Virus record (IMG/VR): IMGVR_UViG_3300036985_001643
Span: 15,280-79,279 of that record
Source of the DNA: a virus
Reading direction: 5' to 3' (one strand)
DNA: 64,000 nt
Shown: positions 3,257 to 54,837 of the stretch, piece after piece
How positions within the stretch are numbered: position 1 is the stretch's first letter
How the letters are laid out: each line of letters opens with the position of its first letter
Made by a program: the position numbers and the translations under genes
Notes under the pieces: generated by a model
What the model saw: the letters and a program-made list of their open reading frames with translations, nothing else
Databases searched by the model: none
What the model was told of the DNA's origin: nothing

Positions 3257-3258
3257 TT

Positions 3259-28200: not shown

Positions 28201-31200
28201 AAGGTAACTATGGAAGACGGTACTACTGTATTCTACGTACACGATAATGCTTGGTTTAGAGAAGAAAACCTTGACAATACACCTGATGCTATTGCTCAAG
28301 ATAAAGCTAACAACTTTAAAATCAGAGAACAAATAATCAAAAAAGGTAAAGTTACTACTAAAGTATCTTATAAAAGTTTTGGTCATTTATTCAGAGCTTA
28401 CGATGGCTCTAAGATTACTACTTCTGAAGCAATGCCAGATAGTGACTTAGCGTTATCTGTTTGTAAGAATGAATCTTTAGATTTTACAAAAGGTAAACTA
28501 TTACCAACTACTTTACAAGAAGGTAGAACTTATGCAATAGTACCTGTAGGACCAGATACTTACTTACCTGTTCCTTTAGAAAGAGCTCCTATTACTCAAG
28601 AGATAGTTGATTCTATTATGATTGCTGTAGAGGCTCACCTTTCAGGTGACACTGAGAATCCTGTTGTACAGGCTATCGGTAACTCTAACTTAGGCTTAGA
28701 CATTACTACTACTGAAGGTTTAAATAAATATGTTCAACAATTTATCTACTTGTATCCTACAGAGAAACAAGAAGGTATTGAGAATCTTTTAATTAACCAA
28801 GGTGGTTCTAAAAGTACTTTGTCTTCTAGTAGACCTATTATTGCAATAACAGCAACAGGTATCGAGTTTGGTAAACCTGGTGTACAAATGGGTTCTTTTA
28901 CTAATCAAGATGGTGTTAAAGTACAATCTTTTGCTGTAGTTCTTTCTAAGAACTTTAAGAAAGATGCTAAGACTACAAAAGGTTTAGCAGCGTTAAGAGC
29001 TATCTTAGAAAGTGGTAATATACTTTCTCATACTCGTTTAGAAAACTTACAAAAGAATCTTGACAGTGTTATCTTATTAGATAACCAAGGAGCTACTAGA
29101 ACTATTAAGTACTCTCAACAAGTAAAAGATTCTACAGTTACTAATCTACGTTCTATTAATATAGGTACAGAGGAAGCACCTAAGTATGTGTATACTATAC
29201 AACCTACTATTAAGTTTGATGTAGCGTTTGCTAAATTAGATAAAGTTAAAAAAGCTAGTTCTACTACTAAGAAAAAAGTTACTGTTCCTAAAGTTACTGT
29301 AACTCCTGTTGCTACTAAAACTACTATTCCTGTTACTACTACAGTTGCTGTATTACAACCAAATGATCTTCAACTTAATGTATCTGCTACTACTAAAAAA
29401 GCAGGTATGGATTCTATTACAAAGCAAGATTCTAGCATAGAGTCATTTGATGAAAATAAGTTTATCAGAGTAACAAAAGCTAATGCAGATGATGTTAATG
29501 GTAAATATTATGCTATTGATAATGGAGTACTAAGAATAAGAATTAATGGAAAAGATGCTGTTTCAGGCAGAACAGGAGGAGCAACCCAAATAAGTGTTAA
29601 AGTCCCAGTAGGATTTAATGAAAAAGTCTTTGCGGAAAAACTTAAAAACATAAGTCATAAAGACGGTGTTACTACTGATAAAGCTGTACAACAAGTTGTT
29701 AATGATGTTAGAAAAGCAATCATAGAAGCACAATCAACTTCCGCAACTACTTCTACTATAGAAGCTAAGAAAGCTGATATAGAAAGAAGAAGACAGACAG
29801 GAACTAATGTTAGAGGTACAACTTATAAAGGAGAAACTACTGAAAAAGATGAATTAAAAGTTACTAAGTATTCTGAGTTTTTTCCTGATGGAAAAAGGAT
29901 CTCTAAAGGAGGTAGAATAATGTTACCTGCTGAATTTATAGAAGAGTACAATATAACTGATCAAGATTATTTAGATAGTCTTGAAGGAGCTACAGAAATA
30001 AGAATATATGAAGTAAGAGTAGGAAAAGATGGTAGATCAGGTATAAGCATACAAGGAACTTTTCCAGAAGGAAACATAGAAACGGATGTTGCTGGTACAG
30101 AACTAACTGCTTTAAGTGAAACTCGAGATGACATAGAAGCTCAAAAAGCTGATGTAGAAAGAAGAACTACAAAAGTAATATCTTCAGAAATTGTAGAAAA
30201 AGGGAACAGAAAAGGTCAAACAAGAACAGTAACTCAAACTAATTCTATAAAAGATGTAGAAGGTACAATAGTAAGTGTAACAGAATATGAAGCAAAAGTT
30301 GGAGATACTACTATCACACTGGGAGGTAAATCAATGACTGTTAAAGAGTTCAAAGAAGAATTTCCATTAGATGAGGATTATGAAGAAATATTTGCAAGTT
30401 GGCCAGATTTAAATGATGATACAATAATTACAGTAAGAAAAGTAAAAAGAACGCCTACTAACTCAAGGTATAAAACTGTTGTGAATATTTTCAACCCTGT
30501 GTTAGGGGGTGAGATGGATATAACTATTAAAAAAGATGATACTAAATATGATGCAGAACTAGCTGCTTTAAAGCAACCTGTTGCTGGTAAACAAGTTCAG
30601 ATAGATGATATAGAAAGAAGACAAAGAGTGGCTGATATAATTACATCTCAGTTTGAATTAGGTGTTGAACTTCCAAAAATTTTAGAAACATTAGCTGAAC
30701 AAGGTTATGTAGAAAAGATTAATAATAGTGCATTTTTTAAACAAAGTGTTGGTAGAGATGCTATAGTTTTTAATATTGATGGTGCAATAGTACCTATATA
30801 TAGAAGCTCAGAAGGAACAAGTAGTAAAACAAAAGGTAAGTGGTATCCTTTTTTCTTTAATGCAGGAGACTGGTTAGTTAAAGGAATGGCTGATAGTTAT
30901 AAAGATGGTTACAATAATCCTATTATTAAACAAATATTAAATAGTTTAAATACTAATTATACCTATGACAAACCAATTGCAAAAGTAAATGGTAACAATA
31001 AAGAGGTATTAGTATTATTAGGTCTTGAAGGATTTGATGAAGAAAATAATGGTATCTATGATTACCAAAATTATCTTGCAGCATCTATAGTATTAAAAGA
31101 TTGGCAAAGTAAATTAGGTAATATTGATGTGTCAGGTTATCAAGAGTATCTTGATGGTGCATTATCTGGGTTAATAAAAGCTAATCCAACTTTAAAATCA

Positions 31201-34200
31201 GAAATAGAAAGTGCATTTAAAACTGCATCAGATAGTTTTGCAGAACTAGCTGCTTTAGAACAAAGCACAAGTGTTGTAAAAACTCAAAAAACAGAATTAG
31301 AGAAAGTAGAACAGGTTAAAGATGTAGTAATAAATGGAGAAAAATATTCATATTATCCATTAGCTGTAAGCCAATCTTCAGGAGCATCTGTGTTAATAGC
31401 AAACAAAAAATCTATTTTAATATCAGACGATTATGGAAATATTTCTGAGTTAGAAACAGCTGAAGAAAAGATTACAGAAAACGATATTACAGCAGGTAAT
31501 ATTTTTTACATGACTGTAGAAAAAGGAGTTCCTAGAATTGTTTCAATAGAAGAAAGTTTACCTGAATTAGGTAATGAAAATGGTTTAAGAACTTATTCAA
31601 TGAGAATAACTTCTTATGACGCAGGAGGATCAAAAGAAATAGAGTCAGGAATTGGTGATTTAGGAAAAATAAAATCATTAGAAAGTAGTATTGGTAAAAG
31701 TGATCTTAGTAAAAAAGAATTAGCTTCAGAGTTAAATAAACTAGGAGTAAAGAAATTAAAAGTAAAGCAAGGACTTATTGTACCTACAATACCTTCAATT
31801 ACAAATCAAGGAAACTTTGAAGAAGATAATACTATTGAGTTACCTAACGATTTAAAGATAGATGCTGCTATTACTTTTACATCTAGTAATGTTTTTCAAA
31901 AAACTTTTAAATCTATAACTACAGCAATTGTAGCAAGTAAGTTGCAATTTACTAAACCTGGTAGATTTATAACTAAAGAAGGAACTTTAACTAAAGAAGG
32001 TGAAGAAATATTAAAAAAATTAACTTCTACTGCTTCTCCTAAAAATTTAAGAGAGTTAGATGCTTTAATTTCTAGCAACTTAGATAAACAACTTTGGGAA
32101 AACGAAAAAGAAAATAGTATAAACTCTATTGTTTTAGACGCTATTACTCAAAATAAAAAAGTAGCTAATTCGTTATTAAGTACAGGAAGGGTAAAATTTA
32201 ATTCTGAATATAGTAATGCATTTGTTGCTACTAGAGAAACTATTAGAGCTAAAAACAAAGAAAATATACAACAGTCCTTTAATAATATTCCAAGTTTAAA
32301 AGAATTAAATTCTCCTGCTTTAGAACAAACTACAGAGCAAGTTATTGCTAACTCTCCTATTCCTTCTGCTGAACAGCAAGTTGAAGAAGCTATTGATCCT
32401 GAAACAATCATAGAACAAGAGGCTATTCAAATGTTAGCTGATCATACAATTGAAGAAATTAATGGATTCTTAGACAATATTAATATAGGTTTAATCACTG
32501 AAGAAGATTTACAAGGACAATCTTTAGAACAAGTTAAACAAGCAATTAACAGAGCTAAAGAAATACATAAAAAGAATAGTGAGAAGAAAACAACTTTCCA
32601 ATTTCCTGGAAAAAAGAGTATTACCGTTGATGGTAACACTAAAGATTCTACGGATATCTCAGAGGATACTTTTGATTATTTAATTAGTCCTCTAAACGAA
32701 GAACAAGTAGACGAGTTAAACGCTGAGGTTGAAGCAATGATTATTAGAGGTGTAGACTCTGAGACACAACGTTCTTTAATTGCTTATATATCTGCAGAGA
32801 TTATTCAAAAAACTCTTGCTGAGAAAGAAGTAGGTGGAGCGAGAACAGTGAAGGTTAAAGATATAATGGATACCAATAAAGAATACTTTATTGCCTTAGC
32901 AGAGTACTACAAGGAAAACGGTTTACCTAACAAAGCTAAAAGATTAGAAGCTGTTGTAGAACAGTTTGATAAAGTAGATAGGTTAGTACAACAATACATG
33001 AGTCTTCTTACTACAGGTACAGTAACTTCTAAACCAAAAACAGAAAGTGAAGAATCAGTAGGATTAGAGAAGACTTTATACACTGATGATTGGGCGTTTA
33101 CTATCGATTCTAAATCTACAGCTTCTGGAGATTTAAAGAAATTCTTTGCTAATATACAAGCACAGGATAAAGACGGATTAAAACAAAACAGTCTAGGGTT
33201 AGAAGAGATAATGCCTTTTGATGCAGTATACGATACTCTTCACGAGATATTAGCTAACAAACCTGCTGACTATACAACAATGATGGAGATTCTTAAGTTG
33301 TATGCAGAGAATTTCCCTTGGATAAACTCTGTAGTAGAATCTATAGAAAAAGCTCCTGAACGTATTAAAAACGAATTTGTTTCAGATATGGCTAAACACC
33401 ATATAGAGATGTCGTTTGTAATGTGGGAAAGAAACAAAAACGGTACTTATAACCTACAACGTTGGTCAAGTAACTCTGCATCTAAAGAGAATAGATTAAG
33501 AGCGATGTGGCAATCTAACTTAAGAGGTGTAGGTACTTCTAGTAACATTGTAGTAGTTAATGACGAAGACGAATACGTATTTGACCACGTAGTTGTAGAT
33601 AGATTAATAACTCAAGCAGAGAAGTTTGCTGAGGATCCTTCTGTGGTTACTAACGATGATATTGCTAATTGGTTAGGTCAATTAGGTATTGTACTTGCTG
33701 ATGACACTTACGATGACTTACGTAACGGTTTATTCAACAATAAAGGTAAGAAAACCTTTAACCAATTATTTACTCATTCTCAAGGGTTATTTAAAGTACT
33801 TACTGCTAAATTAAAAACTATCAGTAATGGTAGACCTAAACCAGGAAAACCTAATACTAACTTAGTAGATAACGCTAATTTAATGACGGATAGTGTTGTT
33901 AAAGCATTGGCTAAATTAGACGCTACTAATAGTCTTAATACTTCTTCTAACTCTTTCCAATCGGGTGGTAAAACTGTTTACTCTTACGGTAACAATAACT
34001 ACTTAGTAAACCGTATGAGAGACTTAACGGCTCACAATGGAGAAAAGTTTATTAACGAAGAACTTATTAAGCATTTACAAGATACTTCTTTTACTAAAGA
34101 TAGTTTATGGTTAAAAGATATTACTTCTACAGATGCTTTAGGAGAAGCTGCTAGAAGAGAGTTAGGGTTAAACTACTTATCGTTAGAAGCGTTAAAGAAA

Positions 34201-36171
34201 AAGTTTACACCTTCTCAAGATGATCGTAAACTAAACAACTTGACACCTGCAGAACACGAGGTAATTAAGTTAGGTTTATTCTTAAATAATTCTGGACAAA
34301 CAATAGGTAAAGAAACTAGACGTAGTGTACAATTCTTTTATCCTACAATGTCGGATAAAACTACTATGTTGAGTATCACTGCTTTAGCTAGAGAGTTAAC
34401 ACTTGAAGAAGGAGTAATATCTAAAGACAACATCAAGTTGTTATTTGATGCTTTAGTACAACCGGAAATTAATCGTATTAGAGATAAACAGGCTTCTGAC
34501 ATTAAAGGTTACGAACCAAACTACTTTTACTTTCTTCCTGCTCTTAATACTCACCCTATTACTATTAATGGTAAAGAGAAAACAGTGTTAGACTTTGTTA
34601 AAGATAAAGACGATAGTATTTACTCACAAGAGTTTAAAGATCAAGTAGAGGCTAAAATTAAAGAAACATACGAACAGTTAGTAGAAGACAAATTAAAAGA
34701 CTGGAAAACTTTAGGTATTGGTAAAACAGTTAAAGACAATAAAGGAAGAGTATCTGAACAATATATGTTTTTAAATTCTTCTTACATGGCCGATGTAGCT
34801 AAAGGTATAGGAGAAGCTAAAGTTAAATATGCAGCAATGGATTACATATTTAACAGTTTAATAGCTAACTCTGAATCGTTTAAGTTATTTGCTGGAGATC
34901 CTGCGTTGTATGCTAAGTTTAAAAAAGATAAAACTTTACAACAAAACCTTGAAGAAACTTTTATCAATATTGGTAAACGTCTTGCTGGAGATATTGCTCC
35001 AGGTATAGAGTTAGCCAACAGTACTAACAATAAGTACCTTCAAGTATTCTTAGAAGATAAGGAGTTAAACAGTAACAATGTTAACGATTCTGTGCAGTTA
35101 GAGTACTTCTCTAAGATAATGAAGGACTATAAGAAAAACTATTCAGGGATAGAAGGATCGGATGCTCAAGAGTATACTACTTGGCAAGAACACATCTACG
35201 TAATGAAACAATTAGGTAGAATTACAGATAACCAATTTGAAGTATTTAATCGTAAGTTGACTGCTCAAACAGATAAAGCTGCTAAAGGTATTCCTTTAAG
35301 CAAAGCTGATAAACTTACATACGAAGAGTTAGGTTTAGTAATGCAACCTATCAAACCTGTATACGTAGGTAACATCGCTGTAACAGATGACAACGTAGAC
35401 AGAAGAATCTATATTAAGTCTTCTAGTTTCCCATTGATTCCTGAGTTAACTGCAGGTCTACAAATAGAGAAAGTACGTAAAGCTATAGAAAAGTTTGAAA
35501 AAGAAGTAGGTGGTAATATATCTTCAGATGGTAACCCTGCTTTTGTTAGAGCTTCTTTTGGTACAGCCAACAAAGTAGGAGCTGTTAAAAACGCAGTAAA
35601 ACTATTTGATGATAATGGTAACGTAAATGATAACTTAGAAATTAAAGAAGAAAACTCTTTAGTACTAAATCGTTCAAACTTCCGTATCCAACAAGACGTA
35701 CCTTACAAAAGAGAAAAGAACGAAATCAACGTAGGTTCTCAAGAGATGAAGTTATTGTTCGTTAACTTATTAGACGTACAAATCGATGAGAATCACACAG
35801 GGGAACAATTGTTAACTAGTTACAATCAAGCATATAAAGAATTGTACGAATATGCTAACGAAAAATTAGCAGAAAGATTAGGATTAGTTACCGAGACTAC
35901 TTCTACTCCAGAGTTAGTAAGTTTGTTAGAAACTCCTACAACTACTGCTGTTGCTGATACTCACGCATTAAAAGAATCTTTGAAAGGTAAATCTACTGTA
36001 CAAAATGTAATAGCTAAACAAAAATTCTCTGAAGAAAAAGGTGAAAATACAATAGATAGAGTTAAATTTATAGACAAAAACTTTGACAAGATTGTAGCAT
36101 CTTTACTTAAAGACGAGCAAATTAAAGTCTTATTCCAAGACGAGAATAACCAAAATAAAAAATGTGAATAA
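25246..36171 (+). CDS. Giant virion cargo protein (3641 aa) carrying the N-terminal part of the crAss-type virion RNA polymerase
   Basis: C-terminal ~1000 aa has KRLAG, DAQEY, QPIKP..YIKSSSFPL, NKVGA, RIQQD, GSQ.MKL motifs as recalled for crAss RNAPs; N-terminal hydrophobic Gly/Ala segments; central repeat-bounded inserts. Confidence 0.75.
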   Translation: MAKKKIVPPPPSPVRLQALSLDTKSDKTLGYNSDIIDEVGAGEEADSGVMQKHYAQKDANFFDPYEDYVDRKTLHGGQFDIEELNTIRATNQSNWEQAGHAVARVATNIVPQIISGFASMVDLPGYIDAEHAASNKIVNWAMDLKKEVDEDWFPIYEEKPGQSMSLSDPAWWMSRGSGLVESVGSFLAQGFGVGKVVSLGAKGIGSVLQGKKLFAALEAIPGVTSGANVAKRIGGATQSLTTAAMLNQSEAVIEATQVFNDTYKARLDEGWDYAKAKKAAAEAASTTMNLNRINILLNLSSATAFLKGQKYTRQLLKNPTLGHTSKELVKEGSQEAVEELINHVASKAGMAKGAEKNYTFENALNDIHSMEGLEAAFLGAIGGIAQTGGTKALEYSKYGPGSTTDESGVKISKVQDARNRYQQQQEVINELKDKGVKITDALNSVKEQLVFEEKLNAAYASGNVEEVKTLHAQMFENVAAKHFSAGTTEVLENLLKAESQKDPEEVGQDYIDRAKQAVKDLRTLENIYNNAEEYANVDEVYRNRASKLRAEKVVPEATTLQKESEFQLNQEVDAIAKKHMFDRERQVLIKKNGVVVDTETKTEKAPITYSLSDLENNTGDTDANKAVYEKFLAEVKALPSYESTNFYTEQLDALQKQIRDLDKDYKNITSDAYQKTAKAKAAEKTKVEQLTKDLPKVSTISEVEKMKESTTDKDFHKAADAKIEEIKKSNDAQAKQKKTQATVAELNTRIEKATEEELEGLLEEINNAELSQTHKTNLRNAYDRRASILNGTPVAVSPEEENPLGAFGFTNNNPNDTAEEIKREEESRATNLPKDLPNPKTETKDVEQQVADTATKLLETDTTRVTGQDTQGNLTYAYGKSTEGHNSGAVLSREFTQTENGGIVTREESTDDIENLQVLDPEVLQSGTPLIMEVDTDYIGPKYDPSSSTRETTSWVDRLAVLKAKAEQQGIPLTQLKEYIAEVPIKVTMEDGTTVFYVHDNAWFREENLDNTPDAIAQDKANNFKIREQIIKKGKVTTKVSYKSFGHLFRAYDGSKITTSEAMPDSDLALSVCKNESLDFTKGKLLPTTLQEGRTYAIVPVGPDTYLPVPLERAPITQEIVDSIMIAVEAHLSGDTENPVVQAIGNSNLGLDITTTEGLNKYVQQFIYLYPTEKQEGIENLLINQGGSKSTLSSSRPIIAITATGIEFGKPGVQMGSFTNQDGVKVQSFAVVLSKNFKKDAKTTKGLAALRAILESGNILSHTRLENLQKNLDSVILLDNQGATRTIKYSQQVKDSTVTNLRSINIGTEEAPKYVYTIQPTIKFDVAFAKLDKVKKASSTTKKKVTVPKVTVTPVATKTTIPVTTTVAVLQPNDLQLNVSATTKKAGMDSITKQDSSIESFDENKFIRVTKANADDVNGKYYAIDNGVLRIRINGKDAVSGRTGGATQISVKVPVGFNEKVFAEKLKNISHKDGVTTDKAVQQVVNDVRKAIIEAQSTSATTSTIEAKKADIERRRQTGTNVRGTTYKGETTEKDELKVTKYSEFFPDGKRISKGGRIMLPAEFIEEYNITDQDYLDSLEGATEIRIYEVRVGKDGRSGISIQGTFPEGNIETDVAGTELTALSETRDDIEAQKADVERRTTKVISSEIVEKGNRKGQTRTVTQTNSIKDVEGTIVSVTEYEAKVGDTTITLGGKSMTVKEFKEEFPLDEDYEEIFASWPDLNDDTIITVRKVKRTPTNSRYKTVVNIFNPVLGGEMDITIKKDDTKYDAELAALKQPVAGKQVQIDDIERRQRVADIITSQFELGVELPKILETLAEQGYVEKINNSAFFKQSVGRDAIVFNIDGAIVPIYRSSEGTSSKTKGKWYPFFFNAGDWLVKGMADSYKDGYNNPIIKQILNSLNTNYTYDKPIAKVNGNNKEVLVLLGLEGFDEENNGIYDYQNYLAASIVLKDWQSKLGNIDVSGYQEYLDGALSGLIKANPTLKSEIESAFKTASDSFAELAALEQSTSVVKTQKTELEKVEQVKDVVINGEKYSYYPLAVSQSSGASVLIANKKSILISDDYGNISELETAEEKITENDITAGNIFYMTVEKGVPRIVSIEESLPELGNENGLRTYSMRITSYDAGGSKEIESGIGDLGKIKSLESSIGKSDLSKKELASELNKLGVKKLKVKQGLIVPTIPSITNQGNFEEDNTIELPNDLKIDAAITFTSSNVFQKTFKSITTAIVASKLQFTKPGRFITKEGTLTKEGEEILKKLTSTASPKNLRELDALISSNLDKQLWENEKENSINSIVLDAITQNKKVANSLLSTGRVKFNSEYSNAFVATRETIRAKNKENIQQSFNNIPSLKELNSPALEQTTEQVIANSPIPSAEQQVEEAIDPETIIEQEAIQMLADHTIEEINGFLDNINIGLITEEDLQGQSLEQVKQAINRAKEIHKKNSEKKTTFQFPGKKSITVDGNTKDSTDISEDTFDYLISPLNEEQVDELNAEVEAMIIRGVDSETQRSLIAYISAEIIQKTLAEKEVGGARTVKVKDIMDTNKEYFIALAEYYKENGLPNKAKRLEAVVEQFDKVDRLVQQYMSLLTTGTVTSKPKTESEESVGLEKTLYTDDWAFTIDSKSTASGDLKKFFANIQAQDKDGLKQNSLGLEEIMPFDAVYDTLHEILANKPADYTTMMEILKLYAENFPWINSVVESIEKAPERIKNEFVSDMAKHHIEMSFVMWERNKNGTYNLQRWSSNSASKENRLRAMWQSNLRGVGTSSNIVVVNDEDEYVFDHVVVDRLITQAEKFAEDPSVVTNDDIANWLGQLGIVLADDTYDDLRNGLFNNKGKKTFNQLFTHSQGLFKVLTAKLKTISNGRPKPGKPNTNLVDNANLMTDSVVKALAKLDATNSLNTSSNSFQSGGKTVYSYGNNNYLVNRMRDLTAHNGEKFINEELIKHLQDTSFTKDSLWLKDITSTDALGEAARRELGLNYLSLEALKKKFTPSQDDRKLNNLTPAEHEVIKLGLFLNNSGQTIGKETRRSVQFFYPTMSDKTTMLSITALARELTLEEGVISKDNIKLLFDALVQPEINRIRDKQASDIKGYEPNYFYFLPALNTHPITINGKEKTVLDFVKDKDDSIYSQEFKDQVEAKIKETYEQLVEDKLKDWKTLGIGKTVKDNKGRVSEQYMFLNSSYMADVAKGIGEAKVKYAAMDYIFNSLIANSESFKLFAGDPALYAKFKKDKTLQQNLEETFINIGKRLAGDIAPGIELANSTNNKYLQVFLEDKELNSNNVNDSVQLEYFSKIMKDYKKNYSGIEGSDAQEYTTWQEHIYVMKQLGRITDNQFEVFNRKLTAQTDKAAKGIPLSKADKLTYEELGLVMQPIKPVYVGNIAVTDDNVDRRIYIKSSSFPLIPELTAGLQIEKVRKAIEKFEKEVGGNISSDGNPAFVRASFGTANKVGAVKNAVKLFDDNGNVNDNLEIKEENSLVLNRSNFRIQQDVPYKREKNEINVGSQEMKLLFVNLLDVQIDENHTGEQLLTSYNQAYKELYEYANEKLAERLGLVTETTSTPELVSLLETPTTTAVADTHALKESLKGKSTVQNVIAKQKFSEEKGENTIDRVKFIDKNFDKIVASLLKDEQIKVLFQDENNQNKKCE
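29758..31260 (+). repeat. Dispersed repeats (IEA.KA)D(I/V)ERR and (A/T)EL(A/T)AL bounding variable domains
   Basis: gat(a/g)tagaaagaaga at 29776, 30151, 30607; cagaacta(g/a)ctgcttta at 30098, 30554, 31241. Confidence 0.85.
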
Positions 36172-36644
36172 TGGAAAAATTACTTACTGACGTAGAGCAA
36201 AAAGAATTAAATAAGTTTGGTAAATTAGAGTTAACAGCTTCACAAGCTTACTTACACCTTACTAATAGAATGAAGACATTGGGTTACTTTGGTGCAGAGA
36301 AGTTCTTTGCAGGTGAATCTAACGATGAAAGAGAGCACTATGCTAAACATGAAGACTTTATGAACAAGTTTAATTGTGAATTAAGTGTTGAAGCATTGAG
36401 CCCTATTGCTTCTGATGTTAGTAACATTAAAGAAGCTTTAGAAATGGCTTACCAAATGGAGGTAGACTTATTAAACGAGTACGAAAAGTCTTGTAAACTT
36501 CCAGAGTTATCAATAAAAGTTGTACTTTTGTTACAAGAGTTTGTTGAAATACAAAGTGGTGCAGTTGGAGAATACGGAGATCTATTAGCTAGATTAACTC
36601 TAACAGACAACATGTTATTATTCGATCAAGAACTAGGAAACTAA
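36171..36644 (+). CDS. ftn: Ferritin (ferroxidase centre apparently intact)
   Basis: E20, Y27, E53-x-x-H56, E97, Q128 spacing of a ferritin four-helix bundle; G.F.GA.KFF and EYGDL motifs. Confidence 0.85.
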   Translation: MEKLLTDVEQKELNKFGKLELTASQAYLHLTNRMKTLGYFGAEKFFAGESNDEREHYAKHEDFMNKFNCELSVEALSPIASDVSNIKEALEMAYQMEVDLLNEYEKSCKLPELSIKVVLLLQEFVEIQSGAVGEYGDLLARLTLTDNMLLFDQELGN

Positions 36645-36654
36645 AAGTACAATT

Positions 36655-39600
36655 ATGGCTTGTCAATATTTTGTAAACGGAGAATGGATCTCTGAGGAAC
36701 AGTTTAAAGAAGTTTTAAACAATGGTTTATTAGATAATTTAGTAGCCAACGGTACTGTTAAAGAAGAAGGATTTCCCGTAGATAATACTAAACTCCTTAA
36801 AACTGAGACAGTTACTACTACTAAAACAACTGTACCTGTAGAAAAACTAGCAGCAATCTTAGCAAAAGAAGTGAGTACTCGTTCAGGGTATCCATTAAAC
36901 ATGTTAAGTGCTCTAGAGTTGAAAGAAGACAAGTCAGACTTTAAAATTCCTTTATGGGCTTCTCCTTACGCAAGTAAGTTTGAGTCTTTATTAACTTCTT
37001 TAGTAAGTAATAAAGTAGTTAAACAAAAGTTTGCTGGTACATCAAGTGTATTAGGTTCGGAAGAAGGGTTTAGAATTAAACAAGGTGACGAAGCAGCAGG
37101 TAGTTTAAAGGACTCCTCTATTGTATTTTCAGACAACTTTGATCCTGAGAAAGGTTTACAACCGATGAGGGTAGATCCTAAAACAGGTAAAATATTACCT
37201 GCTCAAATAATGTTACCTTTTAAGTTTAGAGACGAGTCAGGTAACATATTGTTTATCAACGATTTCCTTAAATTAGATTCTTCAGGAAGACCTTTAAGAA
37301 CTCCAGACGGAAGAGTAACTATTGACGATAGTAAATTACCTGCTAAATTAAGACAGTTATTTGGTTTCCGTATTCCTACACAGGAGCGTAACTCTATGGC
37401 TGCTGTAGAAATAGTAGGGTTTTTACCTGAAGCAATGGGAGATTTAGTACTAGCTCCTAGAGATTTTACTAAACAGATGGGTTCGGATTTTGACGTTGAT
37501 AAGTTGTACAGTTACTTGTATAACCACTTCTATAAAGACGGTAAATTATACACTAATTTCCCAAGTGATAAGAAGACTATTAAAAAACTAACAGATGCTG
37601 CTAAAGAACATTTAGCTACATTGAAAAGTTCTTTAAAACTAAATAGTGCAGAACAAGCATTGTTAAATGCTTACATTGATAACAAGTTAGAAAAAAACGA
37701 TGATAACGATCAAGACGAGTTGCTTACTAAAGCTACTACTCTTATCGCTAGACTTACTAATTCTCCAATAATGGAGGAGATAGAAAACGTTACTAACGAT
37801 TTATCTATTTACAACAGAGCTTACAAAGCTTCTCGTCAAAATAAAATATTAGACATTCACTTATCAGTGATGTTGAGTAATAACCCTGAGGTTATTAAAT
37901 CTATTATTGCATTAGATTCCTTTGGAGATTTTGAGCAATTAGCTCAAGACTTATATAAAGTAAGAAGTGAGCGAGGTTTAATTCCTCCTATTACCACTAT
38001 TCTTTCAGATACTTATCAAAGAACTAAATACATTAACGCTACAGCAGGTAAAACTGGGGTAGGTTCTTTCTCTTTAGATTCTACTTTTAATGCATCTGCT
38101 CAAGGTAAAGAGTTGACCATCATCAATATGGACGATGAGACTCAAACAAATGTATTTGGTACCCCTATAGAACCTAAGAATCCTACTGCTGCTGAAGTAT
38201 TAGAAGCTAATATGACTGTTGCTGCTTTTGGAACTAACGTTTCTAAAGGAGATTTATCAGACAAATATACACTACGTTCTAGAAACTTAATCAACAAAGC
38301 TAAAGAAGAAGGTAGAGAACTTACAGAGGAAGAAAAAGATTCTTTAAAGATGAAGTCTACTATTATTAGATCTTTACAATCTACAGCTGTGGATAATGAA
38401 AAAGCTCAAATATTAGATAAACTTAACATCAACGATCAAACTATGGATGCTGTTAGAGCCCTTACTATATTAGGGTTTGAAGAGAAAGAAATAGTAGGAT
38501 TGATAACACAAGAGATTATTTGGGAGTTTACTGCAGCATTAAAGGATAACGGTTCTTCACTGACTCCTTTCCAAGCTAACGCTGCAGAAACTTTATTTAT
38601 TGATTTAGTAAAGAAATACGATCCTGAAGGTAAACTAGCAGAATTAAAACCTTACGAATTAGAAGCTTTACAAAGTGCTACTAGTGAGTCATTAATGAGT
38701 GACATCAATACTCAAACGTTACAAGAGTTAAGCGTAGGACCAACACCAGATGCTAATCTTAGACAGTTAGCTGCTTTAGCTAAATTCCTTAAACTTACTC
38801 AAATAGGTAAAGATATTAAGACCTTACAGTCTACTATAAATACTGATTCTAAAGGTGTTCCTAAATCTTTAGTAGAAACAGATGCTAAAGTAAAACAAAT
38901 AGAAAGGTTAGCTGCTTCTAACATCTTTAATGCTACTAAGTTGTTAGGAGAATATGAAGGATCTAAATTAGTTACACCTACTACTCTAAATGGTTTTGCT
39001 TCTAAATACGGTACTATGTTTGCAGATACTATCTACAAACAATATTTCCCTTATCATACTACAGGTTTTAAAGTATTAGTAGATGAGTTACTACAATATA
39101 TACCTAAAGGTAAAAATGCTTCGTTAACTAAACAAGCAGAGTTACAATTAGAGTTAATGGACGCTGTTAAGTCTTTCCTTTATGGTAATGCTAATACAAA
39201 CTTGTTTACAGAAAACCCTGATAGTGAACGTGCTAGATTGTTTATAGACACTAAAACTAACAAAAGTTTAGCTACTATACTACAGTCAGTTTCTGAAGAA
39301 AAGTGGTATACTTCTAATGGTTTCCTTAATAAGTTATCGTTAGACCAACAAAAGAATGGTCAAGTTTCTAGAGTAAACTTCGAATCTGCTTCAGGAGAAA
39401 ACTTAGACGAAAGAGATATCTATGACGGGTTTAACTACTTGTTATCTAAGAATTTCCCTATTGGTACTTTTAACGGTATCGATTATACTTCTCGTATGTT
39501 GGCTCAAGATTTAGTAGCTTCAGCGTTCTTAGAAGGAGGTCAACAAGGTTCTAAACAATACTTGAAGTATGTACCTACTGCTTACCTTAAAACTATAGGT

Positions 39601-42600
39601 TTTGGAGATTACTTATCAAATACTTCTTTTAATTACCTTGATACTTTCTTAGGTAATTTAAGCCCTGAAGGACAGTTAATGTATAACAATCCTTCTAGTT
39701 TTATGAGACAATACTTCCAAAATAATGCTGATAAAGCTAAAAAGGTATCGTTGTCTGACTTACAAGGTAAAATATCAGCTGTTCCTGAAGGATACTTTAC
39801 ACTAAACGAAGAAGCTCTAAAGGACAATATAGTAGAGATTACGGATCCTTACACAGGTGAACCAACTACTACACAGACTAAGTTCTTATCTATCTATGAT
39901 AGTAAAGTACCAGGTAAGTATGCATTATTCGAGTTTGACGCTGTAGATAGATTGTACCGTAGAATACCTACTTTACAAGGTTCTTTCGGTTTTGTATCGT
40001 ATAACTCACAAGTTGGTACACCGTTACCTATTGAAAAAGCTAACAGAACTGTTAAACAAGAAGGTAACCAAGAAATACCAGGTTATACTTTACCTCATAC
40101 ACCTACTACTCCTACAAAGTCTTTTGATGTAAACGTGGTTAACAATACTGTTAAACCAGTAACTGCTAATACTTTACCTATTTCAAAAACATTGTCTGGT
40201 ACTAAAGAAGCACTAGACGATTTAATTAATAATATACAATTTGAAGACGGAGTATCTAGTTTAAACAGACAGTTGTTAAGTTCTTTAAGAGATTTACAAT
40301 TACCTGATAACTTTAAAGTAGTGTATGATGATACTTTAAGTAGTAGAGGAGGTTATAGTTATGACAAACAAATATTGTTTATTAACTTAAAACATGAAGC
40401 TAATCAAAATATTGACGGTTTAGCTACCGCTGTTGCTCACGAATTAATACATGCTTTAACAAGTGAGGCTATTTATGAATACCAAAAAGGTGATTTAAGT
40501 AAGTTAACAGCTGACCAAATTAAAGCTATTGAGTCTTTAAAAGCTTTACAAGATAAGTATATTGATCATTTAAAAACTAAAGGTGAAGCAGGTGCTTTAC
40601 AAGCATTTAAAGATAAATATGAAGCTTGGGTAGCACGAGGTAAAACAGGAAAAGTAGGAGTTTCTGCAGAAGATATTTCTAAGTTTTATGCAGGTATTAA
40701 ACTATCAGAGTTTGTTACTATGACTCTTAGTGATCCAGGTTTTCAACAACATCTAGCTTCTGTTATCGATGAGTCAGGAAAATCTCTTTGGGAACAAATT
40801 AAAGAAGTTTTAGGAGAATTGTTAAATACTTTAGGTTTAGATATTAAACCAGGTTCTGCTTTAGCATCTGCTGTAAAAAGCTCTATGGATTTAATTACTG
40901 CTAACCAACAAGCAATGGGTACTAAATTATTTGTTACTAAAATTGATCAATTTAACTACTCTTACGATGCTGTTAATAACGTTGTTATCCACAATGCTAA
41001 AACAGGTGATAAAGTAGAAACTAACGATACACAAATTAATAAGGTATTAGTACAATATGCATTAGCTAATAATAAGGAACAACGTGTGTTTAATGGTTCT
41101 ACTTATGTTGCTATTGCTGATAGAATATTAAACATTAAAAACGCTAACGAAGTAAGTCTAGAAACTTGGGAGTCTGCTAAATCTACTAAGCCATCTACTA
41201 GTATTAAACCTACAATAGATACATCAAGAGAATGGAAAGGTGATTTAGAATCAAGACCTGTCTATACTTCTGAAGGAGTTAATACTATGAGAACTACTTC
41301 TGCTAAAGCTGATGAACATTTTGGTAATCCGTTTAGTGAAGCAGGCTATGGTAATACTATAAAAGTAGCTAGCATAGGTGCGGCTGTCAGAATGTATAAG
41401 GATTGGTTATTAAACAATGCTGTAACTGAATCAGAAATTGTAAAAGGAAATGTTAGTGACTTAGCTAAATTTGATAACCAAAGAGCTTGGATACTTAATC
41501 AAATTAATCAAGGTAAACTTGATGGAGCTACATTGCTTTATGCTGGTAAATCTGAAGCAAGAGGTCAAGGTATGCACCCTACAGCATTAGCTGAAGTAGT
41601 AGAACAATTAAGAAGTAAATCAACTCAACCATCTACTCAACAACAAACTCCAGTAAGTGAAGTTAAAGAAGGTGTGCAAGAAATATTTGAATCTAATCCT
41701 GAATTAGCTAATATAGGTACACCTGAACAATACTCTCAATATCTTGATACTATATTTCCTGATAGTAAAGTAAAAGATATTCTTTATCATGGTACAGCTT
41801 CTCCTAACACTATTGAGAAATTACAACCTCAAAATGATAGAATATACTTTAGTGATAATCTTACAGCTGCAAGATATGCTAGTTGGGATCAAGATAATAG
41901 AGTACAATTTGAACCAGGTTCTCAAACAAAGTTACAAGTAATACCTGCTATTATAAATTTAACAAATCCTGTAAAATTATCAGACGTTAACTTTAAAGAA
42001 ACAGAGACTAATAAAGAAGGAGACGGTATTATTGGTACTAATATAGAAGATCCATTAGGAGGTAGAGAAAATCAAATAGTAGTAAGAAATGCTGATCAAG
42101 TTTATGAATTAGGTACTAAACAAGATTTAGAAGGATTTAAAAAGTTTATTGCTAAAGATACTAAATACGAACTATTCCCAGGTGTATATGCTAATCAAGG
42201 TCAAACAGAAGCTTTAGATAAGTTAACAGATTTCTTAAGCTCTGATAAACAAGCATTCTTACTACAAGGAAAAGGTGGTACAGGTAAAACTACTATTATT
42301 AAAAAGATTGTTAAAGAAGCTCAAGCTCAAGGTAACAGTGTATTAGCAATTGCTCCTACTCATAAAGCTAAAAAAGTATTAGCTAAATCATTAAACGATC
42401 CAGGTATTAAGTCTACTACTTTAGCAGCTGCTTTAGCTATTAAACTTGATGAAACTACAGGTAAATTTACACCTGATGAGTTTGCTAGAAAAATGGATAA
42501 AGTTCCTATTACAAAAACATCTTTAGTAATTATTGATGAGTCTTCTATGATTTCTGATAAACTATTAGAAGAGATTAAAGAGTTACTACCTAAAGGTACT

Positions 42601-43752
42601 AAGATTATTTTTATGGGAGATAAGGCACAGTTACCTCCTGTAGGTCAAGAGAAAGACAGTGCTGTATTTGATGTTAAAAATAACTATACATTAACAGAGA
42701 AAATGCGTCAAGCTGCTACTTCTCCTATTATTAATATAGGAACTAAAGTAGCACAAAACGTAGAAACTACTGGACAAAGAGTTGCTAATCCTATTACAAA
42801 AGAAGATAGAGTAAATGCATTTGATGAAGTAAGTGGTTCTTCTATAATTTGGGAGGACAGTGAAAACAAAGCTTTGGATACCTTTGTAGAAGATATAAAA
42901 AATGCTAATGGTAATGTTGATTTTGCAAAAGTTATTACTTTTAATAATCAAAACCACAATAGTCCTCAATCTGTAAAAAGTTTAAATACTAAGATTAGAT
43001 TAAAATTATACGGAGAACAAGCAAATCAACAACAATTTATACCAGGTGAGATATTAACAGCGTACGATACTTTTGGAGGTGAAGATATTTTATTTTACAA
43101 TAGTGAAGATCTTATAGTAAAAGAAGCTACTGAGCCAGCAAGAAAAACAATTTCTGTAAATGTTACTTCAAGACAACAAGGTAATCGTTCTAAAAGTTTT
43201 GAGTTTAATATAATAAATCTTACTCTTAAAAACGAAGAAGGTAAAGATATAACAGTTCCTATTATTGCTGAATCAAGTAAGGAAGAGTATCAAAGAACGT
43301 TAAGTCAATTGTTTAAAACAGATAAACAAATGGGTTATGCTTTAAGTAGTAAATTTGGTAATTTAGAGTATGGATACGCTATCACTTCTCATAAAGCCCA
43401 AGGATCTACGTATACTAATGTTTACGTGATGGAAGACAATATTATGGGTAGTTCTAACGGAGGTTCTATGAAGGCTAAAAGTCAATCATTATACGTAGCT
43501 GTTTCTAGACCTACTACTAAGTTGGTAATGGTTAGTCAAAAAAACAACCAAAATATCACAGAGGGTACTTTTAGTATGAGTAACTTAGGAGATATCGATT
43601 TAGGTAATTATACAGATAAAGATAATGCTTATAACAACGATGATTACGAAGCTTATTCTAGAGAAATGTATAACAATGACCAAGATCAATTGTTAGCAGA
43701 ATCTCCAATAAGTAGAGATAGATTAGAAAATTATTTGTTACTTTGTAAATAA
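36655..43752 (+). CDS. Virion RNA polymerase catalytic half fused to zincin, DUF4326-like, ADP-ribosyltransferase-like and Dda/RecD-like SF1B helicase domains
   Basis: GFRIPTQ and GSDFDVDK (DxDxD, 37486-37500); HELIH (40438); GNPF (41323); YHGT..IYFS..NQIVV (41785 on); GKGGTGKT, IIDESSM, GDKAQLPPV, HKAQGST, LYVAVSR. Confidence 0.85.
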   Translation: MACQYFVNGEWISEEQFKEVLNNGLLDNLVANGTVKEEGFPVDNTKLLKTETVTTTKTTVPVEKLAAILAKEVSTRSGYPLNMLSALELKEDKSDFKIPLWASPYASKFESLLTSLVSNKVVKQKFAGTSSVLGSEEGFRIKQGDEAAGSLKDSSIVFSDNFDPEKGLQPMRVDPKTGKILPAQIMLPFKFRDESGNILFINDFLKLDSSGRPLRTPDGRVTIDDSKLPAKLRQLFGFRIPTQERNSMAAVEIVGFLPEAMGDLVLAPRDFTKQMGSDFDVDKLYSYLYNHFYKDGKLYTNFPSDKKTIKKLTDAAKEHLATLKSSLKLNSAEQALLNAYIDNKLEKNDDNDQDELLTKATTLIARLTNSPIMEEIENVTNDLSIYNRAYKASRQNKILDIHLSVMLSNNPEVIKSIIALDSFGDFEQLAQDLYKVRSERGLIPPITTILSDTYQRTKYINATAGKTGVGSFSLDSTFNASAQGKELTIINMDDETQTNVFGTPIEPKNPTAAEVLEANMTVAAFGTNVSKGDLSDKYTLRSRNLINKAKEEGRELTEEEKDSLKMKSTIIRSLQSTAVDNEKAQILDKLNINDQTMDAVRALTILGFEEKEIVGLITQEIIWEFTAALKDNGSSLTPFQANAAETLFIDLVKKYDPEGKLAELKPYELEALQSATSESLMSDINTQTLQELSVGPTPDANLRQLAALAKFLKLTQIGKDIKTLQSTINTDSKGVPKSLVETDAKVKQIERLAASNIFNATKLLGEYEGSKLVTPTTLNGFASKYGTMFADTIYKQYFPYHTTGFKVLVDELLQYIPKGKNASLTKQAELQLELMDAVKSFLYGNANTNLFTENPDSERARLFIDTKTNKSLATILQSVSEEKWYTSNGFLNKLSLDQQKNGQVSRVNFESASGENLDERDIYDGFNYLLSKNFPIGTFNGIDYTSRMLAQDLVASAFLEGGQQGSKQYLKYVPTAYLKTIGFGDYLSNTSFNYLDTFLGNLSPEGQLMYNNPSSFMRQYFQNNADKAKKVSLSDLQGKISAVPEGYFTLNEEALKDNIVEITDPYTGEPTTTQTKFLSIYDSKVPGKYALFEFDAVDRLYRRIPTLQGSFGFVSYNSQVGTPLPIEKANRTVKQEGNQEIPGYTLPHTPTTPTKSFDVNVVNNTVKPVTANTLPISKTLSGTKEALDDLINNIQFEDGVSSLNRQLLSSLRDLQLPDNFKVVYDDTLSSRGGYSYDKQILFINLKHEANQNIDGLATAVAHELIHALTSEAIYEYQKGDLSKLTADQIKAIESLKALQDKYIDHLKTKGEAGALQAFKDKYEAWVARGKTGKVGVSAEDISKFYAGIKLSEFVTMTLSDPGFQQHLASVIDESGKSLWEQIKEVLGELLNTLGLDIKPGSALASAVKSSMDLITANQQAMGTKLFVTKIDQFNYSYDAVNNVVIHNAKTGDKVETNDTQINKVLVQYALANNKEQRVFNGSTYVAIADRILNIKNANEVSLETWESAKSTKPSTSIKPTIDTSREWKGDLESRPVYTSEGVNTMRTTSAKADEHFGNPFSEAGYGNTIKVASIGAAVRMYKDWLLNNAVTESEIVKGNVSDLAKFDNQRAWILNQINQGKLDGATLLYAGKSEARGQGMHPTALAEVVEQLRSKSTQPSTQQQTPVSEVKEGVQEIFESNPELANIGTPEQYSQYLDTIFPDSKVKDILYHGTASPNTIEKLQPQNDRIYFSDNLTAARYASWDQDNRVQFEPGSQTKLQVIPAIINLTNPVKLSDVNFKETETNKEGDGIIGTNIEDPLGGRENQIVVRNADQVYELGTKQDLEGFKKFIAKDTKYELFPGVYANQGQTEALDKLTDFLSSDKQAFLLQGKGGTGKTTIIKKIVKEAQAQGNSVLAIAPTHKAKKVLAKSLNDPGIKSTTLAAALAIKLDETTGKFTPDEFARKMDKVPITKTSLVIIDESSMISDKLLEEIKELLPKGTKIIFMGDKAQLPPVGQEKDSAVFDVKNNYTLTEKMRQAATSPIINIGTKVAQNVETTGQRVANPITKEDRVNAFDEVSGSSIIWEDSENKALDTFVEDIKNANGNVDFAKVITFNNQNHNSPQSVKSLNTKIRLKLYGEQANQQQFIPGEILTAYDTFGGEDILFYNSEDLIVKEATEPARKTISVNVTSRQQGNRSKSFEFNIINLTLKNEEGKDITVPIIAESSKEEYQRTLSQLFKTDKQMGYALSSKFGNLEYGYAITSHKAQGSTYTNVYVMEDNIMGSSNGGSMKAKSQSLYVAVSRPTTKLVMVSQKNNQNITEGTFSMSNLGDIDLGNYTDKDNAYNNDDYEAYSREMYNNDQDQLLAESPISRDRLENYLLLCK

Positions 43753-53064: not shown

Positions 53065-53557
53065 TCTTTTTAATAGTTTTTAATTCGTATACTAATTTAC
53101 GTTCGTCCAATGTTTCTACCGGAATAAATTCATAGGTTGTTTTTTGTATGTATTTTACAGTATCGTCAGGTAATATACCTTTATTAATAACTACATCATC
53201 CATACACTTTAACCACACCATTGCTAAATTACTAATATCCCAATTTGGTACATAGTCTTTAGCTGCTGGTTTCCATTGTATCTTTCTTCTACCAGTCGTT
53301 CTATCTACCACCATTTTAACGCTTCCAAAATTAATAGGAGCATATACTTTAATATGTGTTTCTATCGGACCTTCAATAGTAAGATTATCGGGAATATGAT
53401 CGCTAATATACCCATGCATGGCTGCTACTAGAGCAGCCCTTGCAGAGTAATGCATTCCTGTGTGAATCTTATTGTAACCTATTTTAATAAAAGTTTTTTT
53501 ATTCTGTGGAATATGAGTGATAAAACGAGGAAACTCTAATGTTAACTCTGTTACCAT
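53006..53557 (-). CDS. RusA-like Holliday junction resolvase
   Basis: WDISNL..W.K...D.....GILPDDTVKYI. Confidence 0.7.
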   Translation of the reverse strand: MVTELTLEFPRFITHIPQNKKTFIKIGYNKIHTGMHYSARAALVAAMHGYISDHIPDNLTIEGPIETHIKVYAPINFGSVKMVVDRTTGRRKIQWKPAAKDYVPNWDISNLAMVWLKCMDDVVINKGILPDDTVKYIQKTTYEFIPVETLDERKLVYELKTIKKNGLSRNRQRKPKLPKEDIN

Positions 53558-54837
53558 TATACACGTCTTATACGGTTGTTGACAATAATTGTCATCTCTT
53601 CCAAACTACCTTTTAAACCTGTAAGTGCTTGTCTTAGAGAAGATAAAGATAATTCTTTAGGTAATACTTCATGCTCTTTCAACGACTCTAAAGAACTATT
53701 AGACAACAATCGTTCTAATTCTTCTTGTGATTGTGTAACATAATCGATATCTAACGTTTTAACATCAACAGGTTTAATATAACCTTCTTCGTTATACTCT
53801 GCTAAAGCAATAGGTAGATACTCTATACAACGCATTTTACCGTAATCTTCATAAGGTACACTAACAGCATTCATCGGATTAACCAATACTACTAAACCTA
53901 CCGAACCAAAGTAATCTTTTCTTAACCAACTTGCGTTACCTACATGCAAACCTTTAGAACAAGTACGTTCAGGATTAGCATCAGCATCTTTTCTATCTAG
54001 TTTTACTGGTGTTCCAATACTAATCTCGGTAGTACCTGAATAAGCATCAGTGTATACTGTTCTTTCCGTAGAAGTTTTTAATTCGTGATAAAGAACTTCT
54101 AAGTTTCCTAAATAGTTAATCTCTGGAAAATCGTCTTCTAAATCACTAATTTCTCCCCAATTGTTAATAAATTTCTCAATCTTTTTAACATTGTACTCTT
54201 GATCATCGTAGTGATAGTAAACACAATAGTCTTCTGGGTTTTTACCTTTTAGTTTTTTAGATAACCACGCTGCAGCTACTATATCATTTTGTTCTTTAGA
54301 ACCTGCAAACTTAACGTTAGCATTTCTATAAGCTACAAAACAACCACTTTGAGTAAGAGTTAAACCGTTACGTTGGATAAACCCAAATAAGTCTTCTCTA
54401 CAACGAGGATCAGGATTTAAAGCACATAATCTCCAAAAGTTCATCATTGCTGTTAAATCTTCTTGATCTTCTCTTCTTACAGCAAATTCTTTAGCTAAGA
54501 ACTCAGGTACAGTGATGTTGATACCTTTCATATACAGTTTAAAACCGTCTACTTCAAAGTGTTCGTCACCTAAGTTTTTGATATTTTCCATCCACTCTAT
54601 TAGTGTTTGGTTATCTTGTAACTCTTCTTCTTGTCTTTCTAGTTCTAACTCTAATTGATTCTTTGGTGGAATCATCATAGCTACTAATTCTGCTACTTCT
54701 TCTTCGTTACTATCGTCAGTTTGTAACGCTTGATCGTATAAGTCTAGAATTTCTTCTGTACTCTCACAAGTCTTTTTATACATTTTCCCATGGATGTTAC
54801 AGATTACTGTGTTACCCACTCTCATTGCTTTAATCAT
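53557..54837 (-). CDS. rIIB: rIIB-like protein
   Basis: LFGF, G.FVAYR, CSKGLHVG, V.VNP...VSVP.D..KMRC..Y. Confidence 0.85.
   Translation of the reverse strand: MIKAMRVGNTVICNIHGKMYKKTCESTEEILDLYDQALQTDDSNEEEVAELVAMMIPPKNQLELELERQEEELQDNQTLIEWMENIKNLGDEHFEVDGFKLYMKGINITVPEFLAKEFAVRREDQEDLTAMMNFWRLCALNPDPRCREDLFGFIQRNGLTLTQSGCFVAYRNANVKFAGSKEQNDIVAAAWLSKKLKGKNPEDYCVYYHYDDQEYNVKKIEKFINNWGEISDLEDDFPEINYLGNLEVLYHELKTSTERTVYTDAYSGTTEISIGTPVKLDRKDADANPERTCSKGLHVGNASWLRKDYFGSVGLVVLVNPMNAVSVPYEDYGKMRCIEYLPIALAEYNEEGYIKPVDVKTLDIDYVTQSQEELERLLSNSSLESLKEHEVLPKELSLSSLRQALTGLKGSLEEMTIIVNNRIRRV

Follow-up and report, generated by a model that had tools for sequence, protein, structure and literature searches.

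We analyzed a 64-kb window (64,000 nucleotides (nt) of the IMG/VR record IMGVR_UViG_3300036985_001643, a 79-kb crAss-like phage record that is ~62% complete, with a GC content of ~33%) and focused on one + strand open reading frame (ORF), which codes for a protein of 2,365 amino acids (aa), the target protein. The gene combines half of a packaged crAss RNA polymerase (RNAP) with a metalloprotease domain, two modules of the NAD/ADP-ribose type, and a DNA helicase. The order in the protein is the RNAP half with the DFDVD motif, a zincin, a small domain X, a DUF4326-like module, an ART-PolyVal-like ADP-ribosyltransferase (ART), a superfamily 1B (SF1B) helicase, and a tail with a terminal Cys. The region from the zincin to the tail is a slot of linker-bounded cassettes, which are swapped at the strain level at S/T-x-P-S-T linkers. 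In our reading, to which we give a probability of about 0.55, one protein is packaged and ejected, and its RNAP half, zincin, and C-terminal docking tail form a constant frame with a cassette slot. Few known viruses are as abundant as the crAss-like phages. For the question of how their packaged polymerase starts transcription on the entering DNA, the apparent repeated capture of a helicase onto the polymerase suggests a testable answer, which is a built-in template opener.

An earlier note, prepared from the nucleotide sequence alone, had described the protein as a polyvalent protein with a zincin, a DUF4326-like domain, an ART-like domain, and a complete helicase. The label is appropriate, as at least five distinct domains were found within 2,365 aa and the gene follows those of the muzzle and cargo proteins in the late block. 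Every motif named in that note was located at its position, and all four domain calls hold: the helicase strongly, the zincin and the ART moderately, and the DUF4326-like module at the level of fold and protein language model only. The cassette polymorphism, domain X, and the conserved C-terminal tail were not listed there.

Cassette Slot between the Zincin and the Tail

The swapping of cassettes was observed by comparing the target protein with close relatives. In a protein from another contig (P0002), the identity is 99.5% in the RNAP part, 65% in the zincin, 96.5% in domain X, 17.5% in slot 1, 99.4% in the ART, 38.6% in the helicase, and 100% in the tail. Two other relatives contain clean, module-sized gaps, with only the DUF4326-like module missing from P0153 and both the DUF4326-like and ART modules missing from P0152. 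Among backbones whose RNAP parts are 97–99.5% identical, the slot may be without a cassette or contain the ART alone, NADAR-like and ART modules, or, as in the window, DUF4326-like and ART modules. The edges of the modules are formed by S/T-x-P-S-T-type linkers, and a pair of 22-nt direct repeats (86% identical) brackets the DUF4326-like module. The C-terminal tail is kept whatever domain comes before it. The slot-1 module of P0002 was not accepted as a firm NADAR domain, having given only weak transitive matches and no Pfam match at E ≤ 0.01, and it is called NADAR-like here.

When 1.84 billion representative proteins were scanned by HMMER with aa 1181–1846, 1,469 matches were obtained. The zincin segment was found at the equivalent place in many RNAP proteins, and the DUF4326-like and ART segments were present at 40–85% identity in many giant proteins and in short stand-alone ones. 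The frequency of helicase fusion, a question posed by the earlier note, was determined in 119 homologues of the RNAP part. A helicase follows the zincin in 76 of them (64%) and is absent from 43, so the fusion is the majority state in this clade and not an oddity. The same set includes 11 proteins with an ART plus a helicase and four with a DUF4326-like module; the order DUF4326-like, ART, helicase is unique to the window. Among the IMG/VR loci, 9 of 28 contain the helicase, and one of them (L008) contains ART, DUF4326-like, and helicase modules in that order. NADAR occupies the slot in 13 of 120 listed homologues, and ART-PolyVal, 2OG-Fe(II) oxygenase, PF12694, and DUF7831 domains were found there as well. 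As judged from these family assignments, the slot is enriched in NAD/ADP-ribose families, and it resembles a rapidly evolving set of tools that is delivered along with the polymerase.

ART-PolyVal-like modules were also detected in a homologue of the downstream 1,379-aa protein (L022, 14940–18581) and within the upstream giant part of another locus (L021, 908–16537), which indicates that cassettes are not confined to one slot.

Domains of the Target Protein

The catalytic DFDVD motif of the RNAP half is located at aa 278–282 (nt 37486–37500). Residues 62–1039 matched phrog_16227 (3.5e-71) at profile positions 3003–4005 of 4401, and a tblastn search with aa 1–1182 aligned 89% of the query with gp32 of the Flavobacterium phage FpV4 at 27% identity. 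The presence of DFDVD in a giant late protein, the match to phrog_16227, and the synteny place the protein among the crAss-type virion RNAPs. The distance from DFDxD to HExxH is ~984 aa, compared with ~1064 aa across gp66 and gp65 of phage phi14:2, which carry DFDID and HExxH, respectively. The similar spacing indicates that the RNAP block is split at different points in the two phages; therefore, the target protein consists of the DFDVD half together with the zincin that in phi14:2 belongs to gp65. The late blocks gp67-gp66-gp65 of the Cellulophaga phage phi14:2 and gp47-gp50-gp49 of the Bacteroides phage crAss001 (Drobysheva et al. 2020/21; Bayfield et al. 2023) share with the window the DFD(I/V)D motif followed by HExxH about 1,000 aa further on, and Cys residues at the gene junctions. 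They differ in the split points and in the absence of ART, DUF4326-like, and helicase modules from these proteins (no helicase match was obtained in gp65–gp71). The phi14:2 gp66 protein was not recovered in searches of PDB sequences with the whole protein, an RNAP profile, and the 3,641-aa neighbour, and when the window segments were compared with phi14:2 gp65–gp71 by phmmer, the only match was that of cargo protein 1 to gp70. The orthologues in phi14:2 and crAss001 have been detected in virions by mass spectrometry (Drobysheva et al.; PMC10172136). By analogy with these two phages, the only ones in which orthologues were seen in virions, the target protein is presumed to be packaged and delivered to the host.

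The HELIH motif of the zincin-like domain occupies aa 1262–1266 (nt 40438–40452), and E1352 in KLSEFVTM is the candidate third ligand. H1262, E1263, and H1266 are invariant in seven homologues. E1352 and the Phe of the 'EF' motif are nearly invariant. A profile search gave projannalysin at an E-value of 0.0078. The model of the domain (predicted local distance difference test, pLDDT, 83.8) shows three strands followed by long helices. In VIA-align it matched 8vb2_A (Z 8.1), anthrax lethal factor (1yqy, Z 7.3), and 3dl1 (Z 6.7), all with moderate Z-scores, and also PPEPs, SPRTN, ArdC, and selecase. The domain thus has the HExxH helix, placed after a three-stranded sheet, and the downstream Glu on a second helix that characterize zincin-like metallopeptidases (MPTases). 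Three homologues carry a precomputed SprT-like annotation (PF10263). PF18818 was absent from both Pfam scans (whole protein and aa 1134–1482), and the single-sequence Pfam scans of segments gave no match for the zincin, X, and DUF4326-like parts. The zincin, which nearly all relatives possess, with or without effector modules, is a conserved core of the RNAP block and not an accessory added to release the modules. The best structural match, 8vb2_A, is an ejectosome protein of podophage PhiM1, and a weak profile match (E 0.058) was obtained with 9sfn_G, an 'internal virion protein'. Domains of the zincin type may be common among ejection proteins in general.

Domain X was modelled as a compact alpha/beta unit of ~80 residues. 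Searches of Pfam and ESM-Atlas with this domain gave no match. It is present apart from its window neighbours in five giant proteins (P0004, P0052, P0068, P0090, and P0131), showing that domain X is itself mobile.

The conserved motifs of the DUF4326-like module are FGNPF, YKDWL, and LLYAGKSEARGQGMH, and HFGNPF is located at aa 1555–1560 (nt 41317). Many unrelated giant proteins contain copies of it that are 60–85% identical, and 11 residues are invariant and ~25 nearly invariant. None of 15 sequences (the window segment and 14 homologues) matched PF14216, the DUF4326 model of the rhodanese-phosphatase-like clade, even at E ≤ 1; for this reason the module is termed DUF4326-like and membership in the family is not claimed. 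The AlphaFold model of the module (pLDDT 81.6) was compared with BFVD, and the top 27 structural matches were mostly DUF4326 proteins. The best named match had an E-value of 6.3e-3, a probability of 1.00, and template modelling (TM) scores of 0.44/0.52, and the top-ranked unnamed match had an E-value of 4.1e-3 and TM scores of 0.50/0.67. In a protein-language-model search of ESM-Atlas, the three nearest named clusters carry PF14216 at 0.87–0.88. The search of the model against PDB by Foldseek and VIA-align gave no significant match. Three NADAR entries in PDB were considered as a fold match and rejected, as a Z-score of ~3 is too weak to use. The label 'DUF4326-like' of the earlier note is kept on the basis of the fold model, BFVD, and ESM-Atlas, and not of Pfam or PDB. 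DUF4326 proteins are predicted to process ADP-ribose phosphates and are often fused to NADAR, Macro, and SLOG domains (PMC9503650).

The ART module contains LYHGT (aa 1710), RIYFS (aa 1729), and NQIVV...DQVYELG (aa 1806–1820). Its candidate catalytic residues are H1712 of YHGT, Y1731 of IYFS, and D1814/Q1815 on the last strand. The window segment matched PF18760 (Tox-ART-HYD2 clade) with an E-value of 2.8e-4 and 22.1 bits, which is under the gathering cut-off of 31.2, and the module was therefore named ART-PolyVal-like. PF18760 also matched 20 of 27 short homologues at E ≤ 0.01 (best 1.1e-8). In the alignment of the ART homologues (A2), H45 is invariant and Q148 nearly invariant. Regarding the target protein, H1712 is invariant among homologues and Y1731 is present; D1814 is variable, and the adjacent Q1815 is nearly invariant. 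In ART-PolyVal proteins, the H-Y-D residues come from strands 1 (His), 2 (Tyr), and 5 (Asp) (Iyer et al. 2017, PMC5512222). The His and Tyr are in place in the target protein. The ART assignment is of moderate strength. The PDB profile matches of the ART alignment were discarded as spurious, since they covered the linker only. The T4 Alt protein is similarly an ART delivered with the DNA, but it is a separate protein of the R-S-E clade, whereas the ART described here, of the H-Y-D/Q PolyVal type, forms part of the RNAP protein.

All core motifs of the helicase are intact: Walker A (GKGGTGKTT, aa 1872), Walker B (IIDESSM, aa 1959), motif III (GDKAQLPPV, aa 1988), motif V (TSHKAQGST, aa 2244), and motif VI (VAVSRPT, aa 2281). 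Pfam matches above the gathering scores were AAA_30 (6.7e-29), AAA_19 (6.7e-22), PIF1 (6.1e-11), and UvrD_C_2 (1.6e-7). The scores of 101.4 bits for AAA_30 (cut-off 27) and 31.5 bits for UvrD_C_2 (cut-off 27.4) place the helicase in SF1B. Matches to the PHROG Dda-like helicase (2.4e-80) and to Dda (1e-10) and RecD2 (5.9e-10) in PDB agree with this, and the call of a complete SF1B helicase is strong. The direction of translocation, predicted from family membership, would be 5'→3'. The start of the module (KYELFPGV) matches the N-terminus of the closest stand-alone crAss phage helicases (MNKYELFP). The nearest stand-alone enzymes are 47–53% identical and contain 2–9 internal Cys, compared with none in the fused copies; the gene for one of them is located among small early genes (IMG/VR relative L033). 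The target helicase shares all SF1 motifs and the AAA_30 and UvrD_C_2 domains with T4 Dda, RecD2, and the stand-alone crAss helicases; unlike these, it is fused to a virion protein, is Cys-free, and is followed by a docking tail.

In a FastTree phylogeny, fused helicases make up several clades with separate support, interleaved with stand-alone ones. The clade of the window's helicase is nearest to the stand-alone crAss helicases that start with MNKYELFP. The well-supported branches force at least five changes of the stand-alone label; this tree has long branches, some of its rows are fragments of uncertain class, and its class labels are heuristic. The distribution over several clades suggests that the helicase was repeatedly captured onto the RNAP protein.

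The stand-alone helicases P0310–P0322 (640–919 aa) have exactly two Cys, one at each end (MSCYITYK...AKNAFTCK), and look like separately encoded, Cys-capped versions of the fused module. Stand-alone ART and DUF4326-like proteins, e.g., P0027, P0033, and P0064, are Cys-capped likewise.

Proposed Mechanism and Alternative Explanations

The proposed mechanism starts from the properties of the polymerase. The phi14:2 gp66 protein transcribes single-stranded DNA strongly, and the related eukaryotic QDE-1 requires a helicase (Drobysheva et al.). The helicase of the target protein probably unwinds the incoming DNA for a polymerase with a preference for single-stranded templates, and the idea of a helper helicase is plausible in view of the template preference of gp66. 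Tracking 5'→3' along the non-template strand, the helicase would travel the same way as the RNAP does on the other strand, its template, and would open the entering double-stranded genome and possibly help to draw the DNA in. The cassettes, as judged from their family relationships, are probably early NAD/ADP-ribose effectors. The ART-PolyVal module would ADP-ribosylate host targets in the first moments of infection, like T4 Alt, and the DUF4326-like (or NADAR-like) module would process ADP-ribose derivatives or adducts, either as counter-defence or as a guard against the co-delivered ART. Modules of this kind are in keeping with the NAD/ADP-ribose conflict systems that Iyer et al. surveyed in 2022 (PMC9503650). 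The modules probably act while tethered to the frame, because the frame and the tail are kept whatever the slot contains. The slot, which is swapped between phages with a 99.5% identical polymerase, would mark a hot spot of phage–host conflict over NAD/ADP-ribose chemistry, and its contents would be a natural inventory of candidates for counter-defence early in infection.

Parts of this architecture have been published. Polyvalent proteins of phages and conjugative elements with an MPTase hub are known, including the N4-type virion RNAP of Roseovarius Plymouth podovirus 1, which is fused to an MPTase and an ART (PMC5512222), and crAss RNAP blocks were found to contain a zincin and to be occasionally fused into polyproteins (Drobysheva et al.). 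With the Roseovarius Plymouth podovirus 1 protein and the polyvalent proteins, the target protein shares the form of a giant, presumably virion-associated protein with a zincin-like MPTase hub and an H-Y-D/PolyVal ART, in which a virion RNAP and effectors are expected to act at the start of infection. However, the polyvalent N4-type RNAP is T7-like, whereas that of the target protein is of the two-barrel crAss/QDE-1 type and constitutes one half of a split RNAP. The helicases of the polyvalent proteins are mainly SWI2/SNF2 and rarely UvrD (Iyer et al. 2017), whereas the target protein has an SF1B Dda/RecD-like helicase and a DUF4326-like module. In the literature searched, we found neither a crAss RNAP whose C-terminal partner is in most cases an SF1B helicase nor such a cassette slot.

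Several points weigh against our reading. The functions of the target protein are all predicted from homology. The relatives without a helicase (36%), and also phi14:2 gp66, indicate that the helicase is not required for RNAP function in general. The third catalytic residue of the ART is ambiguous, and its score is under the Pfam threshold. Cys residues are typical of the DUF4326 family. The module of the target protein contains none and has no Pfam match, so its chemistry may differ or may be lost. As the record is incomplete, a second copy of the helicase may exist; the fused enzyme was rejected as the only helicase of the phage, given this incompleteness and the DnaB-like helicase encoded in the window.

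One alternative, which follows the earlier note in having the zincin release the domains, is that the protein is a polyprotein precursor. The zincin, acting in the capsid or once the protein has been ejected, would cut the S/T-x-P-S-T linkers and free the RNAP, ART, DUF4326-like module, and helicase. The conservation of HExxH and the downstream Glu, and the short conserved linkers that bound every module, are in accordance with such a role, and autoprocessing by the MPTase of polyvalent proteins (Iyer et al., PMC5512222) and cleavage of fused crAss polyproteins (Drobysheva et al.) have been proposed. We nevertheless regard this alternative as doubtful. The zincin is found in nearly all relatives, including the cassette-free ones, and the virion RNAP of N4, the closest precedent, also has an MPTase and yet enters the particle unprocessed (PMC5512222). 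Moreover, the tail and its terminal Cys persist behind the helicase regardless of the intervening domains, which suggests a whole chain until delivery.

Rather than serving the polymerase, the helicase could be an anti-defence or DNA-protection tool that strips host nucleases or nucleoid proteins off the entering DNA, or starts recombination or replication, with the fusion ensuring its early arrival. The exchange of helicase alleles between near-identical backbones (38.6% vs. 99.5% identity) fits an arms race better than housekeeping, the adjoining cassettes are conflict-type domains, and the closest stand-alone helicases lie in early or replication gene clusters. On the other hand, the helicase was fused specifically and repeatedly to the RNAP-zincin protein, beside the tail, and this RNAP family prefers single-stranded templates. 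As a replacement for the helper role we consider the anti-defence role unlikely, and the two roles are not exclusive.

It is improbable that the accessory modules are decayed passengers, catalytically dead and retained only as spacers or packing mass within the capsid. The Cys-free DUF4326-like module and the sub-threshold ART could be taken as signs of decay, but the loss of Cys is common to all proteins of the cargo block. In addition, the DUF4326-like module is 60–85% identical across very different giant proteins, the helicase motifs are intact, the invariant His of the ART is kept, and the Tyr of IYFS is present. Finally, an assembly chimera, which the earlier note had allowed for, a missed stop, or a frameshift can be dismissed almost entirely: no positive evidence was found beyond the restriction of the exact order DUF4326-like, ART, helicase to this contig, while the frame is continuous and the GC content even, P0153 and P0152 are ~97–99% identical over the other junctions, DUF4326-like modules occupy the equivalent slot of P0162/L008, P0179, and P0192, and the RNAP-zincin-helicase architecture, recurring on dozens of independent contigs, is thus no product of chance or assembly.

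Terminal Cysteines and Genomic Neighbourhood

The five proteins of the cargo block (window 25246–47902) contain 5 Cys in 9,789 residues, whereas Cys accounts for ~1.1% of the residues coded for by the other genes. Those of the target protein are C3 and C2364. Cys residues of the cargo block are found at the protein termini, exactly at the points where the RNAP block is split (L001 FpV4, L002–L029, L030 phi14:2, and L032 crAss001). In split forms, one protein ends with ...KKC(D/E) and the next starts with M-(A/S)-C, the fused junctions are without these Cys, and where all three parts are fused (ORF of ~4,900–5,900 aa) there is no Cys whatever. In phi14:2, the single Cys of gp67 (C1797) is its last residue, two Cys are present in gp66 (C3 and C2179), and gp65 again has one (C3). 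In crAss001, gp47 and gp49 have one Cys each (C2339 and C5, respectively) and gp50 has three (C5, C1334, and C2404); this arrangement is seen although gp47 and gp50 are encoded on opposite strands. The 3,641-aa protein is an exception to the rule, since its second Cys, at aa 1073, lies well inside.

The terminal Cys suggest a head-to-tail linkage of the ejected proteins. We tentatively propose, at somewhat less than even odds, a covalent chain in which disulfides join the 3,641-aa protein (...KKCE), the target protein (MAC...LLLCK), and the 1,379-aa protein (MSAATC...) head to tail, with effectors carried in cis or as Cys-capped M-x-C...C-K 'beads', such as the stand-alone ART, DUF4326-like, and helicase proteins. 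Disulfides have been documented in the crAss001 tail, and none were reported for these cargo proteins (PMC10172136). If the proposal is true, the slot and bead system would be a plug-in delivery line, and the helicase would be the built-in template opener of the RNAP.

The features of the window are given in Table 1. The late genes are on the + strand, and the target ORF, one unbroken reading frame, lies in the crAss late block downstream of the muzzle and cargo protein 1 genes. The early genes, on the − strand from 48 kb, code for dNMP kinase, exonuclease, rIIB, rIIA, primase, Sak4, and the DnaB-like helicase. A megablast search of GenBank phages with the target ORF gave no match, and the helicase was the sole part matched in a tblastn search with aa 1134–2365.

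Table 1. Location of genes, domains, and repeats in the window.
Feature	Position (nt)	Strand	Evidence
Muzzle protein	13674–17972	+	Pfam crAss_MUZ 6e-149
Cargo protein 1	17975–22399	+	
930-aa ORF	between cargo protein 1 and 3,641-aa ORF	+	
3,641-aa ORF, holds the other RNAP half	25246–36171	+	
Ferritin-like ORF	36171–36644	+	PF00210 2e-10
Target ORF (RNAP-zincin-effector protein)	36655–43752	+	
RNAP C-terminal half, aa 1–1180	36655–40194	+	phrog_16227, FpV4 gp32 match
Zincin-like metallopeptidase domain, aa ~1181–1420	40195–40914	+	HExxH, fold
Domain X, small, beta-rich, aa ~1423–1500	40921–41154	+	separate occurrence, model
Direct repeat, left copy (KSTKPST linker)	41178–41199	+	
DUF4326-like module, aa ~1517–1653, Cys-free	41203–41613	+	
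Direct repeat, right copy (KSTQPST linker)	41616–41637	+	
ART-PolyVal-like ADP-ribosyltransferase, aa ~1669–1833	41659–42153	+	
SF1B (Dda/RecD-like) helicase, aa 1837–2300, Cys-free	42163–43554	+	
C-terminal tail, aa 2301–2365 (65 residues), ends ...YLLLCK	43555–43752 (incl. stop codon)	+	
1,379-aa ORF	after target ORF	+	
rIIB-like and rIIA-like genes	53557–54837 and 55088–57523	−	PHROG 4.2e-26 and 4.5e-51
DnaB-like helicase	61409–62497	−	

A ferritin-like ORF of 157–169 aa separates the RNAP halves in every relative that is split there (L002–L010, L013, L014, and L017–L019), and it is missing where the RNAP halves are fused.

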